Virus record (IMG/VR): IMGVR_UViG_3300001784_000008
Strand: one strand, 5' to 3'
Source: an uncultured virus (IMG/VR IMGVR_UViG_3300001784_000008)
Taxonomy: Duplodnaviria; Heunggongvirae; Uroviricota; Caudoviricetes
DNA: 64,000 nt
Made by a program: the position numbers and the translations under genes. The notes under the pieces were generated by a model. That model ran no database searches and was not told where the DNA came from. It was given only the letters and a program-made list of their open reading frames with translations. Of this stretch, positions 1 through 46,219 are shown piece by piece; the stretch's first letter is position 1, and every line of letters begins with the position of its first letter.

Positions 1-255
1 GGGCTGGCTGCCGCAGTGATTGCTGCTATCGCTGGCGCATTCGGGTTAGGTCATTCACGCGGCATAAGCAAAGCTGAAGCGAAAGCAGACCAGCAGCGCA
101 CTGAAGACAAGGCCGCTGCTACTGAAGCAGTAGCCGAACGCCGGGTAGAAGCAACGAAAGAGGCCAGCAATGTACAGCAGACTGTTAACCATATGCCTGA
201 TGACGATGTTGATCGCGAGCTGCGTGACACGTGGAAGCGTCCCGGTGGTGGTTGA
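1..255 (+). CDS. Inner-membrane spanin-like (Rz-like) protein, 5' truncated by window
   Basis: Near-identical to 44364-44639, which follows the endolysin; N-terminal hydrophobic segment then helical region. Confidence 0.7.
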   Translation, partial: GLAAAVIAAIAGAFGLGHSRGISKAEAKADQQRTEDKAAATEAVAERRVEATKEASNVQQTVNHMPDDDVDRELRDTWKRPGGG

Positions 256-388
256 TACTGCCTGTGACTGGGTAAAGCCAATCTACCTTACTGATCACGA
301 CATCGATGTTATGGACCGCCAGACGAAGAAAGACATTCTGGCGCATAACAAAGCGTGGCAGGCGAACTGTCAGAAGGTGAGCCAATGA
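170..388 (+). CDS. Outer-membrane spanin lipoprotein (Rz1-like)
   Basis: Signal peptide with lipobox LIAS-C, overlapping the Rz-like gene in another frame. Confidence 0.7.
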   Translation: MYSRLLTICLMTMLIASCVTRGSVPVVVDTACDWVKPIYLTDHDIDVMDRQTKKDILAHNKAWQANCQKVSQ

Positions 389-585
389 GTTACACGCGAT
401 GTACCTTTTGCGGTTCAGGCCTACACACCCGTGATAATTGCCCGCATACATGGAGTGGCAGCGCTCGCCGGGTAAATCTTCGCTGTAGCTACTGCGGTGT
501 AACTGGTCACAATTCTACTGCCTGCCCGCATAATGCCAGCAGCGCGAACCGTCGTCGTCTGAATAACGATTTCTATCTCGATTAA
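385..585 (+). CDS. Small protein with two CCHC zinc knuckles (66 aa)
   Basis: ATG overlaps spanin stop (ATGA); C-TF-C-GSGL-H-TRDN-C and C-SY-C-GVTG-H-NSTA-C; paralogue at 44769. Confidence 0.85.
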   Translation: MSYTRCTFCGSGLHTRDNCPHTWSGSARRVNLRCSYCGVTGHNSTACPHNASSANRRRLNNDFYLD

Positions 586-699: not shown

Positions 700-951
700 A
701 TGCTTGAGGGAAGGTTGGAGACTATGCACAGTGGAACGCCCTGCTTCGCGGTGTATGGTAAGGAAGAGTTCATAAATAGCCTTATTGATTACATCAGGAG
801 CAGTACGAAGTATCCAGCCGAAATTCGTATCATTGGCGGGTTGGATGTGATGGGGCGAATGAAAATCATCATTACAGGTAAGTATATAGACGAAATGTCG
901 CTGGATGATTTTCAGTCAATAATGCTGAAAAGCTACACACATAACGATTAA
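700..951 (+). CDS. Hypothetical moron protein
   Basis: GGAG RBS, 83-aa ORF, followed directly by a terminator. Confidence 0.6.
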   Translation: MLEGRLETMHSGTPCFAVYGKEEFINSLIDYIRSSTKYPAEIRIIGGLDVMGRMKIIITGKYIDEMSLDDFQSIMLKSYTHND

Positions 952-960
952 CTCCTCCCA

Positions 961-982
961 ACCGCCTTCGGGCGGTTTTTTT
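961..982 (+). terminator. Rho-independent terminator
   Basis: ACCGCC-TTCG-GGCGGT plus T run. Confidence 0.85.
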
Positions 983-1191: not shown

Positions 1192-1300
1192 TGTGACTGG
1201 GTAAAGCCAATCTACCTGACTGATCACGACATCGACGTTATGAACGGTCAGACGCAGAAAGACATCCTGGCGCATAACAAAGCGCGGCAGGCGAACTGCC
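1192..1300 (+). repeat. Diverged duplicate of o-spanin 3' half (263-370)
   Basis: TGTGACTGGGTAAAGCCAATCTACCT...GGCGAACTG shared with 263-369. Confidence 0.9.
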
Positions 1301-1494
1301 AAAAACAAAACGGAAGCTCGCAATAGTGGGCTTTAATTTTCAAAAAAGAGTTCACTGAATTGATTTTTATTGCGATTATTTTGATGCTGCGAGCAGTTTA
1401 TGGGCTAAGTGATTTAGTGCTTTGATGAAGGTCTTTTCGGTTAAAAAGTAACCGGTCGTGGTATGATAACCCTTATTCTTAGAGGGGGTATATT

Positions 1495-3160: not shown

Positions 3161-5057
3161 GGGGCTGCGGCACTCTGCTAGCGCGGGGCTCCGTTCGCTG
3201 TACCGGCCAGAGCCGCAAACAGCTGTTGAATGGGCAGACGATAACTACTATCTCCCGAAAGAGTCTGCCTACCAGGAAGGCCGCTGGGAAACTCTGCCAT
3301 TTCAGCGGGCAATAATGAACGCGATGGGCAACGACTATATCCGGGAAGTGAATGTCGTGAAGTCTGCCCGCGTTGGCTATTCAAAAATGCTGCTCGGGGT
3401 GTATGCATATTTCATTCAGCATAAACAGCGCAACTCCCTTATCTGGTTACCAACTGACGGCGATGCTGAAAACTTCATGAAGTCTCATGTCGAACCCACA
3501 ATCCGTGATATTCCAACGCTGCTATCCCTTGCTCCCTGGTATGGCAAAAAGCACCGTGACAACACGCTCAGTATGAAGCGTTTCTCTAATGGGCGCGGAT
3601 TCTGGTGCCTCGGTGGAAAGGCTGCGAAAAACTACCGCGAGAAATCCGTCGATGTGGCGGGCTATGACGAGCTGGCGGCCTTTGATGAAGATATAGAGAA
3701 AGAGGGATCCCCGACATTTCTTGGAGATAAGCGCATTGAAGGGTCTGTCTGGCCCAAGTCTATTCGCGGATCAACACCGAAAGTCAGAGGAACCTGCCAG
3801 ATTGAGCGTGCTGCGAAGGAATCTCAGCACTTTTTGCGGTTCCACGTTCCCTGCCCACATTGTGGGGAAGAGCAGTACCTGAAATTTGGTGATAAAGAGA
3901 CCCCGTTCGGGTTTAAGTGGACGCCTGGTGATCCTGCCAGTGTATTTTACCTTTGCGAGCATAATGCCTGTGTAATTAAGCAGCAGGAGCTTGATTTTTC
4001 TGAAGCCCGTTATATTTGCGAAGAAACGGGCATCTGGACACGGGACGGGCTGAACTGGTTCTCATCATCTGGTACTGAAATTGATCCCCCGGATAGCGTC
4101 ACCTTTCATATCTGGACAGCATATAGTCCATTCACTACCTGGGTACAAATCGTCAAAGACTGGAGCAAAACCAAAGGGGATACCGGCAAGCGTAAAACCT
4201 TTGTGAATACCACACTTGGCGAGACCTGGGAGCCGAAAATTGGTGATCGGCCGGATGCGGAAGTCATGGCCGAACGTAAAGAACATTTCGGCGCTGCATT
4301 ACCAGAACGGGTGGTCTACCTTACGGCAGGGATCGACTCACAGCTTGACCGTTATGAAATGCGTGTCTGGGGCTGGGGACCGGGTGAGGAAAGCTGGCTT
4401 ATCGACAAAATCATCATTATGGGCCGCCATGATGATGAAGCGACGCTTCTCAGGGTAGACGATGCGATCAATAAAACCTATTCAAGGCTGAATGGTGTGG
4501 AAATGCTCATTTCCCGTATCTGTTGGGATATCGGTGGTATTGATCCGACGATTGTTTATAACCGCTCGAAAAAGCATGGTTTGTTTCGTGTGATCCCTGT
4601 TAAAGGCGCATCTGTTTACGGTAAACCCGTAGCAAACATGCCCCGCAAGCGTAACAAGAACGGCGTTTATCTGACTGAAGTGGGTACTGATACTGCGAAA
4701 GAGCAGATTTATAACCGTTTCACGCTGGTGGCTGAAGGTAATGAACCCCTTGCGGGTGCGGTTCACTTCCCGAATAACCCTGAAATCTACGATTTAGCCG
4801 AGGCTCAGCAACTGACTGCTGAAGAGCAGGTTGAGAAGTGGGTAGACGGTAAGAAAAAAATCGTCTGGGACAGCAAAAAGCGCCGAAATGAGGCGCTTGA
4901 CTGCTTTGTCTATGCACTGGCGGCTCTGCGGATAAGTATCTCCCGCTGGCAACTCAATCTGGATTCTCTTCTGGTCAGTCTGATGGAAGAGGACAGTGGT
5001 CGTAAAAATAACAAAACTCTGGCGGATTACGCCAGGGCATTAGCGGGAGATGAATAA
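3135..5057 (+). CDS. A: Terminase large subunit gpA
   Basis: [11 protein letters not shown]alker A, YDE Walker B, lambda gpA-like, GTG start. Confidence 0.95.
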
Positions 5058-42036: not shown

Positions 42037-42048
42037 GTGGAGACGCTC

Positions 42049-42879
42049 ATGGACCTTGATAACGTTGTTAAATTTTTCGCCCCGAAAGGAATGCATATTT
42101 CCGATAGTGTTCGCGCTACTGCCAGTGAACAACTTACGGTAACTGATGTTATGGCGGCGCTTGGNATGACTCAGGCAGACGCTGGTATTGGGCTTGCCAT
42201 GTATCTTGGTAAGGCNGGGGTAAGTAAGCAGGACAGAGANNCATCGATAAGNTGGCTTGCTGAATACGCCAAAGAATCCGCGCCTTTTGCAGTTCGCCGT
42301 CTCTCCGGTAAGAAATTCCCTCTNTGTATGCTCATCCTGGCTAANTTCGCCTATAACGACTATGCATCGTCAGCTGCTGATTTATTTGATTGTTCTAAAT
42401 GCAATGGCAAAGGGNTCATTGAAAAAGTNGGNACGGTAACGAAAAGNCATTACACNATGAGNCTTCCTCAATGGGCTAANGACCTNAGGCAGTCCCCATC
42501 AGNTTTCGAAAAGAAGCGGGAAGTTAAGAATGTTGAGCAATCACTCTGTGGTAAATGCCACGGCACTGGAAAGCTNAGTAAGCGTTGCCAGTGTGGAGGG
42601 ACCGGGAAAACACTGGACCGCAAAGCAACTGATCTTCAGGGTGTGCCAGTTTATAAGGAATGCAAGCGTTGTGAAGGTCGCGGTTACAGCAGNCCAAAAT
42701 CCTCTGTTGCTTACCGGGGTATATTCTCAGAACTCNCAAGCCTTCCTGATCGCACCTGGCGCTATAGCTGGAAACCATTNTATGAGAAGCTCGTTTCGCG
42801 CTGCTTCCAGGAAGAAAGNTATTCGAATACACAATTGAAAAAAGTTACCAGAANCGAAANTTTGACGGANATCGCGTAA
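42049..42879 (+). CDS. Q: Late antiterminator Q (contains Ns)
   Basis: VKFFAPKG, LTVTDVMAA, CxxCxGxG repeats; precedes late promoter and lysis genes. Confidence 0.85.
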   Translation: MDLDNVVKFFAPKGMHISDSVRATASEQLTVTDVMAALXMTQADAGIGLAMYLGKXGVSKQDRXXSIXWLAEYAKESAPFAVRRLSGKKFPXCMLILAXFAYNDYASSAADLFDCSKCNGKGXIEKXXTVTKXHYXMXLPQWAXDXRQSPSXFEKKREVKNVEQSLCGKCHGTGKXSKRCQCGGTGKTLDRKATDLQGVPVYKECKRCEGRGYSXPKSSVAYRGIFSELXSLPDRTWRYSWKPXYEKLVSRCFQEEXYSNTQLKKVTRXEXLTXIA

Positions 42880-42895
42880 TTTAACGTCACGTTAC

Positions 42896-42924
42896 TTGCA
42901 ATGTTGCCGTTTTTGATGTAATTT
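42896..42924 (+). promoter_or_regulatory. pR'-like late promoter
   Basis: TTGCAA-17 bp-TAATTT after Q, followed by terminators. Confidence 0.55.
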
Positions 42925-42970
42925 GACACTAACGATGGGCATTGTATGTTCACGGTTAGAAAGAAAATAT

Positions 42971-42996
42971 AAAAAACCTCGCTACGGCGGGGTTTT
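42971..42996 (+). terminator. tR'-like terminator
   Basis: AAAACCTCGC-TACG-GCGGGGTTTT. Confidence 0.75.
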
Positions 42997-43078
42997 GTTG
43001 TTTCTAAGGGCTGCCTATTGGCGGCCTTTTTTTGTTTCCCCTCGTTCTGAGAGGACTCACGGCAAAAGAGGGGGCTAA

Positions 43079-43474
43079 ATGTCCGATCCTGTTTCTGGCA
43101 CTACGGTAGCTGCTAGTGGTCTGATGGGGGCCAGTATGTTTGGCCTGGCAACCGGCATTGATTACGGTGTGGTTTTTGGTGCTTTTGCTGGCGCGGTGTT
43201 CTACGTCGCTACGGCGGTTAACATCAGCCGCCTGAAGCTGGTGGGCTACTTCATCACATCATTCATCTTCGGCGTAATTGGCGCGCCTCTACTCGGTTCT
43301 TACTTCTCCAAATGGACGGGGTATAGCGACAGGCCGCTTGATGCGCTTGGTGCGGTAATCGTAGCCGCAGTAGCGATTAAGCTGCTGACGTTCTTCAACA
43401 GTCAGGATTTGGGTAGCCTGTTTGGAATGCTTTCACGCTTACGTGGAGGAGGGACAAGCAATGGTAACAAGTGA
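43079..43474 (+). CDS. Putative holin
   Basis: Several TM segments, GVVFGAFAGAVFYV. Confidence 0.8.
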   Translation: MSDPVSGTTVAASGLMGASMFGLATGIDYGVVFGAFAGAVFYVATAVNISRLKLVGYFITSFIFGVIGAPLLGSYFSKWTGYSDRPLDALGAVIVAAVAIKLLTFFNSQDLGSLFGMLSRLRGGGTSNGNK

Positions 43475-43742
43475 TCCGAGTGCAACGTTCAATGCCATCA
43501 TCTGCGGGATCATCGTTATTGCCCTGATGCTCTACCAGCGCGGTGGGGCGAGACACCGCCCGCTAATATCGCTGATGGCTTACTTCACGGTGCTGGTTTA
43601 CGCCAGCGTTCCTTTCCGTTACCTGTTCGGCCTGTATCACGAATCACACTGGGTTGTAGTACTGGCGAACATCCTTATTTGCGCTGCCGTTCTCTGGGCT
43701 CGGGGAAACGTAGCGCGTCTGGTTGATGTACTGAGGCACTAA
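43461..43742 (+). CDS. Phage holin-family protein
   Basis: TM segments, GARHRP and ARGNVARL. Confidence 0.8.
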   Translation: MVTSDPSATFNAIICGIIVIALMLYQRGGARHRPLISLMAYFTVLVYASVPFRYLFGLYHESHWVVVLANILICAAVLWARGNVARLVDVLRH

Positions 43743-44356
43743 TGAACCAAACACAATTTCAAAAGGCGGCTGATGTAAGCGCCGGGTTAGCTGCGCGCTG
43801 GTTTTCACATCTGGATGCCGCAATGAAGGAGTTCGGTATCACAGCGGTTAACGATCAGGCCATGTTCATTGCACAGGTAGGGCATGAGTCTGCTGGCTTT
43901 ACCTCGTTGGTAGAGAACTTCAACTACTCGGTAGACGGGCTGAAGAAAACCTTTGGTAAACGCTTGACGCCGTATCAGTGTGAAATGCTGGGGCGTGTGG
44001 ATGGTAAGCAGGTCGCCCATCAGCCGCAAATAGCCAATCTGGTTTACGGTGACCGCATGGGTAATAACAGCCAGGGTGATGGCTGGAAATATCGTGGTCG
44101 TGGCCTGCTGCAAATCACTGGTCGTGAGAACTACACCAAATGCGGTACAGCGCTGAAGCTTGACCTTGTCAGTACACCGGAACTGTTAGCGCAGGAGCAA
44201 CACACGGCCCGCTCTGCAGCATGGTATTTCACGCTGAGTGGTTGTCTCCTGTATTCGGGGGATGTCGAACGCGTCACGCAGATCATCAATGGTGGACAAA
44301 ACGGTATTAAAGACCGCCGTGAACGTTACGCCAAAGCAAAAGCCGCACTGGTGTGA
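43742..44356 (+). CDS. GH19 endolysin
   Basis: FIAQVGHESAGF, YRGRGLLQITGRENY, INGG. Confidence 0.93.
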   Translation: MNQTQFQKAADVSAGLAARWFSHLDAAMKEFGITAVNDQAMFIAQVGHESAGFTSLVENFNYSVDGLKKTFGKRLTPYQCEMLGRVDGKQVAHQPQIANLVYGDRMGNNSQGDGWKYRGRGLLQITGRENYTKCGTALKLDLVSTPELLAQEQHTARSAAWYFTLSGCLLYSGDVERVTQIINGGQNGIKDRRERYAKAKAALV

Positions 44357-44363
44357 GGAGTCT

Positions 44364-44639
44364 ATGGGACTTGAAATGATTATTGGGCTGGCTGCCGCAG
44401 TGATTGCTGCTATCGCTGGCGCATTCGGGTTAGGTCATTCACGCGGCATAAGCAAAGCTGAAGCGAAAGCAGACCAGCAGCGCACTGAAGACAAGGCCGC
44501 TGCTACTGAAGCAGTAGCCGAACGCCGGGTAGAAGCAACGAAAGAGGCCAGCAATGTACAGCAGACTGTTAACCATATGCCTGATGACGATGTTGATCGC
44601 GAGCTGCGTGACTCGTGGGAGCGCCCCAGTGGTAGTTGA
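44364..44639 (+). CDS. Inner-membrane spanin-like protein
   Basis: GAGGAG RBS; N-terminal TM; follows endolysin. Confidence 0.7.
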   Translation: MGLEMIIGLAAAVIAAIAGAFGLGHSRGISKAEAKADQQRTEDKAAATEAVAERRVEATKEASNVQQTVNHMPDDDVDRELRDSWERPSGS

Positions 44640-44772
44640 TACCGCCTGTGACTGGGTAAGGCCAATATACCTTACTGATCACGACATCGATGTTATGGAC
44701 CGCCAGACGAAGAAAGACATCCTGACGCATAACAAAGCGTGGCATGCGAACTGCCAGAAGGTGAGCCTATGA
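44554..44772 (+). CDS. Outer-membrane spanin lipoprotein
   Basis: LIAS-C lipobox; overlapping frame. Confidence 0.7.
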   Translation: MYSRLLTICLMTMLIASCVTRGSAPVVVDTACDWVRPIYLTDHDIDVMDRQTKKDILTHNKAWHANCQKVSL

Positions 44773-44969
44773 GTTACACGCGATGTTCTTTCTGCGGTTC
44801 TGGTTTACATACCCGTGATAATTGCCCCCATACATGGAGTGGCAGCGCTCGCCGGGTAAATCTGCGCTGTAGCTACTGCGGCGCAACTGGTCACAATTCT
44901 AACGCCTGTCCACACAACGCCAGCAGCGCGATCCGTCGTCGTCTGAATGACGATTTCTATCTTGATTGA
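44769..44969 (+). CDS. Double CCHC zinc-knuckle protein
   Basis: C-SF-C-GSGL-H-TRDN-C and C-SY-C-GATG-H-NSNA-C. Confidence 0.85.
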   Translation: MSYTRCSFCGSGLHTRDNCPHTWSGSARRVNLRCSYCGATGHNSNACPHNASSAIRRRLNDDFYLD

Positions 44970-44978
44970 GGAAAAACA

Positions 44979-45179
44979 ATGACTTTATTAGTACTAACAG
45001 CTGAACAGATCAAAGCGCTCGCTGAGTTTGCCGAATCAGAAGGTCAGGCTTCGTATACGATCACCCATACCACAATCCCAGCATTTGAAGATGAAGGTGG
45101 TGAGGTTGTGCCGGAATACACAGGATTGGTTGCCTACTCTGGCTCAGAAGAGCACGGTGTTCTGCAGTTGGAAGATTAA
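44979..45179 (+). CDS. Hypothetical acidic protein
   Basis: GAGG RBS, 66 aa. Confidence 0.65.
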   Translation: MTLLVLTAEQIKALAEFAESEGQASYTITHTTIPAFEDEGGEVVPEYTGLVAYSGSEEHGVLQLED

Positions 45180-45181
45180 CT

Positions 45182-45532
45182 ATGCCTGCGCTAATTCCTC
45201 GTGCGTGTAGGAAGCGTGGCTGCCCAGGCACAACCACTGACCGCTCTGGTTATTGTGAGAAGCACCGTAATGAAGGCTGGCAACAGCACCAGCAGGGTAA
45301 GAGCCGTCATGAGCGAGGGTATGGCAGTAAGTGGGACATCATCCGCGCACGTATATTGTCACGTGATAAACACATCTGTCAGAACTGCTTGCGTAATAAT
45401 CTCGTGGCACCTGCAAAGACGGTTGACCATATCAAGGCGAAGGCACACGGCGGCACTGATGATGACTCTAACCTCGAAAGCCTCTGCTGGCCCTGCCATC
45501 GCACCAAGACAGGTCGCGAACGCATCAAATGA
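45182..45532 (+). CDS. Packaging-associated HNH endonuclease
   Basis: ERGYG, VDHIK...GGTDDDSNLESLCWPCH; precedes terminase. Confidence 0.93.
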   Translation: MPALIPRACRKRGCPGTTTDRSGYCEKHRNEGWQQHQQGKSRHERGYGSKWDIIRARILSRDKHICQNCLRNNLVAPAKTVDHIKAKAHGGTDDDSNLESLCWPCHRTKTGRERIK

Positions 45533-45724: not shown

Positions 45725-46219
45725 ATGGCTGGAACGGCGGGGCGTTCCGGGCGTCGACCCAAGCCAACGGCACGCAAGGAGTTGGCCGGGAACCCCGGCA
45801 AGCGAGCCCTGAATAAAGAAGAACCAGTATTCACACCCATCAAGGGAGTTGAACCACCTGACTGGTTTACCGAAGAGGAGCTTCCGTTAGCGTCCATCAT
45901 GTGGGAGCTGACGACTAAAGAATTATGCGGTCAGGGCTTACTTTGCGTTACCGATCTTGCTGTGCTGGAACGCTGGTGCATTGCCTATGAATTCTGGCGA
46001 AGGGCAGTAAAGAATATTGCAGTTGATGGGCTTTCCATCACTGGCGCGATGGGTGGGAAAATTAAGAACCCTGAACTCACGGCTAAAAAAGAACAGGAAT
46101 CGGAAATGAGTTCTACTGGTTCAATGCTGGGACTTGACCCCAGCAGTCGCCAGCGCCTTGTTGGTCTGGCCGGGAAGAAGAAAAACGAAAACCCATTCCT
46201 GAAGATGATCACGCCATGA
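45725..46219 (+). CDS. Terminase small subunit, P27 family
   Basis: [30 protein letters not shown]. Confidence 0.93.

Follow-up and report, generated by a model that had tools for sequence, protein, structure and literature searches.

A double CCHC zinc-knuckle protein of tailed phages: a small optional gene under purifying selection, with a possible role in counter-defence

Zinc knuckles of the CCHC type are a hallmark of retroelements and of eukaryotic RNA metabolism, and they are rare in bacteria and their phages. The retroviral nucleocapsid (NC) proteins (HIV NCp7, RSV NC; PF00098) are small basic proteins with two C-X2-C-X4-H-X4-C motifs. In HIV NC, Phe16 and Trp37, which stand right after the first cysteine, stack on guanine, and knuckles can form single-base pockets (PMC7601788, available part). 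Air2, a eukaryotic five-knuckle subunit with flexible linkers, binds RNA through knuckles 2–4 and the protein Trf4 through linker 4 (IWRxY) and knuckle 5 (PMC3384339, available part). With regard to genomic behaviour, the closest described case is anti-Tab of Pseudomonas phage JBD26, a small, non-essential counter-defence gene that overlaps a late-operon gene and is expressed from the late message (PMC10884400, available part).

The nearest named homologue of the protein described here, and the only named one, is Gp64 of phage phiKO2 (YP_006644.1), with 76% identity across all 66 residues. It belongs to the same family and has both knuckles intact; an Agrobacterium member is also labelled Gp64. 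In contrast to the genes described below, the gene for Gp64 is the last one in phiKO2; it lies 74 nt past gp63, and no spanin precedes it. The original genome paper may mention the knuckle motif. The phiKO2 record assigns no function to Gp64, in agreement with the first-pass annotation, which knew of no described function for this protein. A literature search (mostly open-access, titles and abstract openings) found no paper on the double-knuckle family, and the available part of PMC7614390 contains nothing on it.

The window, by which we mean the whole 64-kb stretch of DNA that was analysed, contains two such genes, one in each of two prophages, in the following setting:

1..255, + strand: Rz-like i-spanin of prophage 1 (phrog_1026), 3' part, running off the window start
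170..388, + strand: Rz-like spanin of the lipoprotein (o-spanin) type, 72 aa (phrog_1275, E 4e-34); its TGA overlaps the ATG of copy 1
385..585, + strand: double CCHC zinc-knuckle gene, copy 1 (66 aa; phiKO2 Gp64 family; translation and motif scan)
400-441 and 484-525, + strand: the two knuckles of copy 1, separated by a 14-residue linker; an acidic-aromatic C-terminal tail is present
within 700..977, + strand: 83-aa ORF without a family match, 3' of copy 1, with a terminator-like hairpin at 960-977
1192..1304, + strand: 3' part of a second o-spanin, a 91% identical direct repeat of 263-375
43079..44772, + strand: lysis cassette of prophage 2 (two holins, GH19 endolysin, i-spanin, o-spanin)
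44364-44639, + strand: i-spanin of prophage 2
44554-44772, + strand: o-spanin of prophage 2, overlapping copy 2
44769..44969, + strand: double CCHC zinc-knuckle gene, copy 2 (protein 92% identical to copy 1; knuckle starts at 44784 and 44868)
44979..45532, + strand: small gene (phrog_9518) and HNH endonuclease (phrog_144), 3' of copy 2

Translation confirmed the basic protein that had been reported on the first pass: each copy is a 66-aa ORF with two exact C-X2-C-X4-H-X4-C motifs, and each starts on the stop codon of an o-spanin. In copy 1, the start codon (ATG, 385-387) and the stop codon of the 72-aa spanin ORF (TGA, 386-388) overlap to give ATGA, with the stretch AAGGTGAG just 5' of it; the same ATGA overlap is present at copy 2. 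The protein has 8 K+R, 3 D+E and a pI of 9.2, and its sequence has no membrane or signal segment. A search of all six frames of the 64 kb revealed no further motif of this form besides these four, where residue frequencies would predict 0.09 single motifs and 6e-6 close pairs by chance.

The ORF is a real protein-coding gene under strong purifying selection. As first described, the second copy retains all eight ligands despite mostly synonymous changes: the copies differ at 20 of 198 nt, with 15 synonymous and 5 non-synonymous differences that alter five residues (dS 0.45, dN 0.033). The same pattern extends to 90 distinct alleles drawn from 94 non-redundant close loci, in which median dN/dS is 0.072 and every pair falls below 0.5 (1085 of 4005 pairs, dS 0.05-1.5). 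Variation at third codon positions reaches 0.36, versus 0.10 and 0.09 at the other two, and both motifs are kept in 88 of the 90 alleles. An artefact of an overlapping frame was rejected: not one of the 90 alleles has an open reading frame in either of the remaining forward frames, and selection on codons is strong.

The gene had initially been presented as coupled to the lysis cassette "in both phages". Two copies are indeed present, but neither is independent of the other. Locus L003 has the same sequence as copy 1 and reaches beyond the 5' end of the window; over 2928 nt (L003 1-2928) it is 97.9% identical to window 42045-44972, and identity is 100% in 17 successive 100-nt bins (about 1.7 kb); inside the window, the shared lysis module is represented by 1-200 in prophage 1 and 44385-44584 in prophage 2. 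Directly past the stop of the knuckle gene, identity between the two loci drops to 23%, and the packaging modules differ: prophage 1 has a phrog_57/15 terminase and prophage 2 a phrog_83/9 terminase plus HNH (small subunit at 45725, after the HNH), which we take to be lambda-type and HK97-type, respectively. "Both phages" is therefore one lysis module placed before two packaging modules, which could reflect a recent exchange between the prophages or a collapse in assembly. The window copies are thus non-independent witnesses of any link to lysis.

The surroundings of copy 1 show several further features. The 113-nt direct repeat (263-375/1192-1304) flanks the knuckle gene, the 83-aa ORF and the terminator, and the continuation of the second o-spanin repeat resembles the knuckle-less end of phage mEp390 (87% over 149 nt), which suggests a mosaic of two lysis-end alleles. 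Between them, at about 1035-1193, lies what is left of the 5' end of a prophage glycosyltransferase gene (72-78% identity to L019:6606-6772, phrog_1579, and to mEp390 gp54), which ends abruptly at the spanin repeat. Further along the lysis-to-terminase interval, a small zinc-binding protein of the YnfU family is encoded at 1495-1659 (NF038384, E 1e-20) and is followed by a terminator-like hairpin of its own at 1680-1697. A 22-bp inverted repeat, 95% complementary with a 1-nt spacer, is found at 1716-1760, between the YnfU-like gene and a phrog_2571 fragment.

A profile search against 1.84 billion representatives returned 501 matches. Among the best 150 of these, 98 are at most 135 aa long, a few of them being fragments and at least one (P0151) a knuckle protein from outside the family; the longer ones are multi-knuckle repeat proteins matched on the motif. 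Two exact motifs occur in 85 of the 98 short matches from the best 150, and a 14-residue linker in 77 of those 85, so that the conservation of Cys and His positions holds well beyond the close alleles. The family spans about 95 clusters at 50% identity and has a consensus that occurs twice in tandem, C-[TS]-[YF]-C-G-S-x-x-H-x4-C-P-[KH]-T-W-x-G-x3-R; its median net charge is +5 (96 members), and 89 of 96 members have an Asp among their six C-terminal residues. Neither copy matched any Pfam, PHROG, NCBIfam or PADLOC model at its cut-off or with a strong E-value. For the window copies, the best PHROG E-value was 0.003 and the best NCBIfam E-value 0.009, the latter far under cut-off, and PADLOC gave no match for either copy and a best E of 0.008 for one of 12 proteins. 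An atlas search with the relative P0003 gave a top match at 0.97 with 136 members, probably its own cluster; all others scored below 0.9, and these knuckle proteins are leads only.

Named hosts include the Enterobacterales Enterobacter, Klebsiella, Serratia, Pantoea, Citrobacter, Leclercia and E. coli, as well as Pseudomonas aeruginosa, Ralstonia, Agrobacterium, Sphingomonas and Aurantimonas, among them several Alphaproteobacteria. The gene was found in 10 of 50,697 phage records, compared with 122 that carry the window spanin and 187 that carry the window HNH. A DNA search detected it in 6 of 5426 E. coli genomes, and none of 400 sampled genomes of the phylum had it, the centre genome apart. 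It is present in 178 of 72,556 plasmid records, 172 of them from Klebsiella; from their size and phage matches, we infer that the Klebsiella records are N15-like phage-plasmids.

Several members lack a gene annotation, for example at L002 ~3992-4190 (Pseudomonas phage RSP) and L274:2501-2700 (an E. coli RefSeq record). In L039, 11 nt past the family gene, a second and different double-CCHC-knuckle ORF of 69 aa (4213-4422) has no PHROG or Pfam match. In L186, a decayed half copy (3691-3816) lies 1.2 kb 5' of the intact gene, which fits a gene gained in a second slot and lost from the first.

The first-pass annotation called the knuckles "retroviral-nucleocapsid-type". This stands for the ligand spacing, as it does for the paired motifs, the small basic protein and weak matches to the NC structures 2EC7 and 2IHX (E 0.02-0.03), but not for the features specific to NC. 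Both copies fell short of Pfam zf-CCHC (PF00098), the profile by which the assignment was to be verified, with 14.4 and 15.8 bits against a cut-off of 20.8. Among 87 two-motif members, an aromatic residue right after the first cysteine, the position that is aromatic in an alignment with HIV-2 NC, occurs in only 2% and 1% of the two knuckles, and instead lies one place later in 94% and 97%. The linker is also longer than that of NC, and the phage knuckle protein is a stand-alone ORF among the genes of dsDNA tailed phages and not a domain of a Gag polyprotein. A search for fusions among 8000 scored longer candidates gave two matches, neither of them Gag. One resembles an over-long start; in the other, P0256 from Ralstonia, a phrog_6128 protein truncated after its residue 321 (the profile has 1200 aa) continues in frame into a complete double knuckle, a fusion that is probably accidental.

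The closest profile is that of Air2 knuckle 4. Of 96 members, 54 match AIR2-like_ZnK4 (PF21759) at E 0.01 or better, which makes it the commonest Pfam match in the family (zf-CCHC, 4 of 96); the window copies score 16.1 and 13.9 bits against a cut-off of 27, and the best relative reaches E 1e-7. The best PDB sequence match is also Air2 (E 6.5e-4), followed by NC proteins and TUT4/7, and a weak resemblance to Lin28 knuckles reaches E 0.01 or better in 14 of the 96. In sequence alignments, yeast Air2 (PDB 2LLI, 3NYB) shares C-P-x-x-W after the knuckle, and its knuckles 2–4 likewise lack the aromatic after the first cysteine and have a small residue there; the C-P-x-T-W of the family aligns to the start of Air2 linker 4. 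Unlike Air2, the phage protein stands alone with two knuckles and a fixed 14-residue linker that is predicted to be helical, and a resemblance in sequence does not imply descent from Air2. Since Air2 knuckles bind RNA and the linker binds Trf4, the resemblance supports nucleic-acid binding and protein binding alike. The label "Nanos-type domain", given automatically to one member in UniRef, was set aside, with no Pfam or fold match behind it.

AlphaFold2 models place a helix after each knuckle, both in copy 1 (pLDDT 77, pTM 0.54, 96 rows) and in the relative P0028 (pLDDT 90, pTM 0.68, 18 rows), and the protein is predicted to be a two-zinc knuckle-plus-helix repeat. An interleaved arrangement of the ligands may exist instead of one knuckle per motif. 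With these two models, Foldseek gave no significant match (E above 0.001) and another fold search no Z of 2 or more; such absences show neither a new fold nor a different one. The weak rows are knuckle proteins (T. brucei RNase D, Air2, Lin28A, CLIP-170 and HIV NC), and local superpositions on known knuckles, 0.6 A over 18 residues (for Lin28, E 6) and 0.9 A over 17, are weak matches at E 6-9. In sum, the ligand spacing is that of known zf-CCHC proteins and the NC-specific tests failed; the fixed linker, repeat consensus and tail are the family's own.

The genomic positions of the family are diverse. Among the 94 close loci, the upstream ORF is a terminase-linked HNH in 53 (all with ATGA, just before the terminase small subunit), a spanin of one of three families in 25, another gene in 13 (among them L263, apparently a spanin region that the script overlooked) and was not found in three; the ATGA overlap occurs in 74 of the 91 loci with an upstream ORF. 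The distant set comprised 87 non-redundant viral loci, reduced to 69 independent contexts, with ORFs called by a simple script and 395 of 873 representative neighbours scanned against PHROGs. Here, a lysis gene lies within 1.5 kb in seven contexts, 16 are between morphogenesis genes, 14 have a structural gene on one side, nine are near terminase, 18 fall among replication or other genes and five have no label; no partner gene recurs across the 69. Late contexts make up 46 of the 64 labelled ones; as a raw count, in which long structural genes gain a label more readily, this may barely exceed the late fraction of the genome and does not establish enrichment in late operons. The 18 contexts with replication or other genes indicate that late timing is not universal. 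On a protein tree of 73 rows, which has few columns and many open forks, the four context labels require 28 changes, and the lysis label requires nine for 11 rows (shuffled mean 10.4; 47 of 500 shuffles as low).

The clearest case of insertion comes from a comparison of a P. aeruginosa prophage (L094) with phage D3: an exact 208-nt insert, the ORF plus one base, lies between the Ad1 stop and the Hc1 start, two head-tail connector genes. Similarly, in mEp390, two holins and an endolysin accompany a spanin of 94% identity, behind which stands another small gene and no knuckle gene. These empty sites show that the gene is optional, and it would be read from the operon it has entered; the extent of the D3-type insert indicates that it has no promoter of its own where this can be checked. 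Upstream of copy 1, no promoter-like site was found (two sites in 1-2700, both inside the gene; 4.5 expected by chance). A classical moron carries its own promoter and terminator and is expressed from the prophage; the knuckle gene resembles it as a single gene added relative to the sister phage D3, but differs in that the D3-type insert carries neither element of its own. Transposon-like movement was considered and is unsupported, with flanking direct repeats of at least 8 nt in only 6 of 47 members (a raw count, uncorrected for chance). The knuckle gene is thus an optional insert at many genome positions and not part of the lysis machinery, and the earlier suggestion that its coupling to lysis was a clue to function did not hold in the neighbourhood survey, where the gene follows a spanin in 25 of 94 close loci and lies near a lysis gene in 7 of 69 distant contexts.

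Our tentative reading, plausible rather than probable as a whole, is that a promoterless accessory gene encodes a basic two-zinc protein that binds single-stranded nucleic acid and gives a host-dependent, probably counter-defence, benefit. Its first step, a protein-coding gene under strong purifying selection, is the result given above. In the second, the bare ORF would move between phages and slot between existing genes, often with start/stop overlap, as seen at one empty site and supposed for the remaining positions; so it would be expressed from whichever lytic operon it entered. Its place in the window, after the spanin and ahead of the packaging genes, would put it at the far end of the late transcript. 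The protein is most likely made from lytic transcripts, and translational coupling would place its synthesis during lytic growth. The predicted product is two knuckle-plus-helix repeats around two Zn ions, whose basic surface, with its conserved Tyr/Phe, Trp and Arg, would bind unpaired RNA or DNA. By analogy with Air2 knuckles 2–4, we consider such binding somewhat probable; weighing against it are the missing guanine-stacking aromatic of NC, the sub-threshold zf-CCHC scores, the lack of a significant structural match and the fact that knuckles also bind proteins. The last and weakest step is that the protein would act in trans on something of the host, because any position works, there is no fixed partner and most sister phages lack the gene. 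It would cover or remodel single-stranded nucleic acid during lytic growth, and most likely a defence that senses or cuts nucleic acid would thereby be blunted in some hosts.

For such genomic behaviour, anti-Tab offers a precedent in its overlap-coupled position, with the difference that it travels with its target gene tab whereas the knuckle gene has no fixed partner (PMC10884400, available part). In RNA runs, only small shares of the knuckle-gene region were covered. In run X4, one contig spans the whole gene of a relative at about 85% identity, although contigs cannot show transcription; X7 covers part of a relative's gene and X1 and X6 barely or not at all, with DNA carry-over possible. 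NAR688 carries a homologue, and nine phage proteins are reported in its lysogen proteome (PMC12042878, available part).

As an unlikely alternative, the knuckle pair could be a scaffold that inhibits a host or prophage protein, again in counter-defence, with the C-terminal aromatic-x-x-Asp tail in the docking surface. The absence of the NC-type aromatic, the near-constant Asp of the tail, the CLIP-170 knuckle among the weak fold matches and a fixed linker with a pTM of 0.68, suggestive of one compact surface, would all suit such a role, as would the alignment of C-P-x-T-W to the start of the Air2 linker which, with knuckle 5, contacts Trf4 (PMC3384339, available part). However, the family is strongly basic, no partner gene recurs as tab does for anti-Tab, and for hosts that range from Enterobacterales to Alphaproteobacteria, a target of conserved chemistry, for example nucleic acid, is at least as good a fit as one protein.

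The HNH-linked positions raise another, improbable, explanation, in which the protein helps packaging or cohesive ends as an annealing chaperone or as a cofactor of HNH/terminase at cos. The 53 ATGA-coupled loci before the terminase small subunit fit this, together with the terminal position in phiKO2 and the nine distant contexts near terminase, but prophage 1 has a different terminase family and no HNH beside the knuckle gene, most phage records with the HNH lack the gene (187 versus 10 records), and it also occurs among tail, connector and replication genes. The interval from lysis genes to terminase is a known sink for accessory genes. A prediction of the knuckle protein in complex with the prophage 2 HNH and four Zn gave a score of 0.01 and a mark of 0.32, which speaks neither for nor against.

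Mu Com, a small zinc protein, switches on the translation of a single mRNA, and a similar sequence-specific, RNA-binding regulator of phage gene expression would be compatible with a small, basic protein with two predicted zincs and a weak resemblance to Lin28 knuckles. We judge this distinctly improbable: the 80-nt flanks of 47 divergent members (immediate flanks only) share no 7-mer, the best word occurring in 6 of 47, and there is no constant neighbour as a candidate target.

Known sponge proteins are small, position-independent and patchily distributed, as is this family, but they are oligomers with deep pockets. It is very unlikely that the knuckle protein is such a sponge, with its pockets and aromatics binding a small nucleotide messenger of a defence system, cyclic or otherwise; single-base pockets are within the repertoire of knuckles (PMC7601788, available part), but sequence and fold searches gave no similarity to any solved sponge structure. 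Finally, a regulator of lysis acting with the holin-endolysin-spanin cassette, suggested by the ATGA coupling to the o-spanin in both window copies, the three spanin families and the seven distant contexts, is extremely unlikely, given that the window copies are one shared module, most members lie away from lysis genes, the lysis label changes on the tree about as often as in shuffles, mEp390 has a related cassette without the gene and the protein has no membrane or signal segment.

Nucleic-acid binding or counter-defence thus remains our best guess as to what the protein would do. In its strongest form, which is possible but doubtful, a widespread, unmodelled family of tailed-phage proteins would turn a knuckle pair of eukaryotic or retroviral style against bacterial immunity while the phage grows lytically. 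With a new fold, a tandem of knuckle and helix, the protein would stand alone and bind single-stranded nucleic acid or a nucleotide signal, and its gene would spread as a bare ORF into any lytic operon. Against counter-defence, no known anti-defence neighbourhood was found around family members and no PADLOC family matches.

More generally, the family comprises dozens of divergent branches under strong purifying selection, for which there is no curated model. Annotation often misses the gene, with no CDS in the E. coli RefSeq record that was checked and none in phage RSP, and the gene is common on Klebsiella plasmid records of phage-plasmid size. The D3-type pair, with and without a clean insert, makes its function directly testable. 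If the counter-defence role is true, a new class would be added; if the protein is a nucleic-acid chaperone, dsDNA phages would possess a nucleocapsid-like activity.
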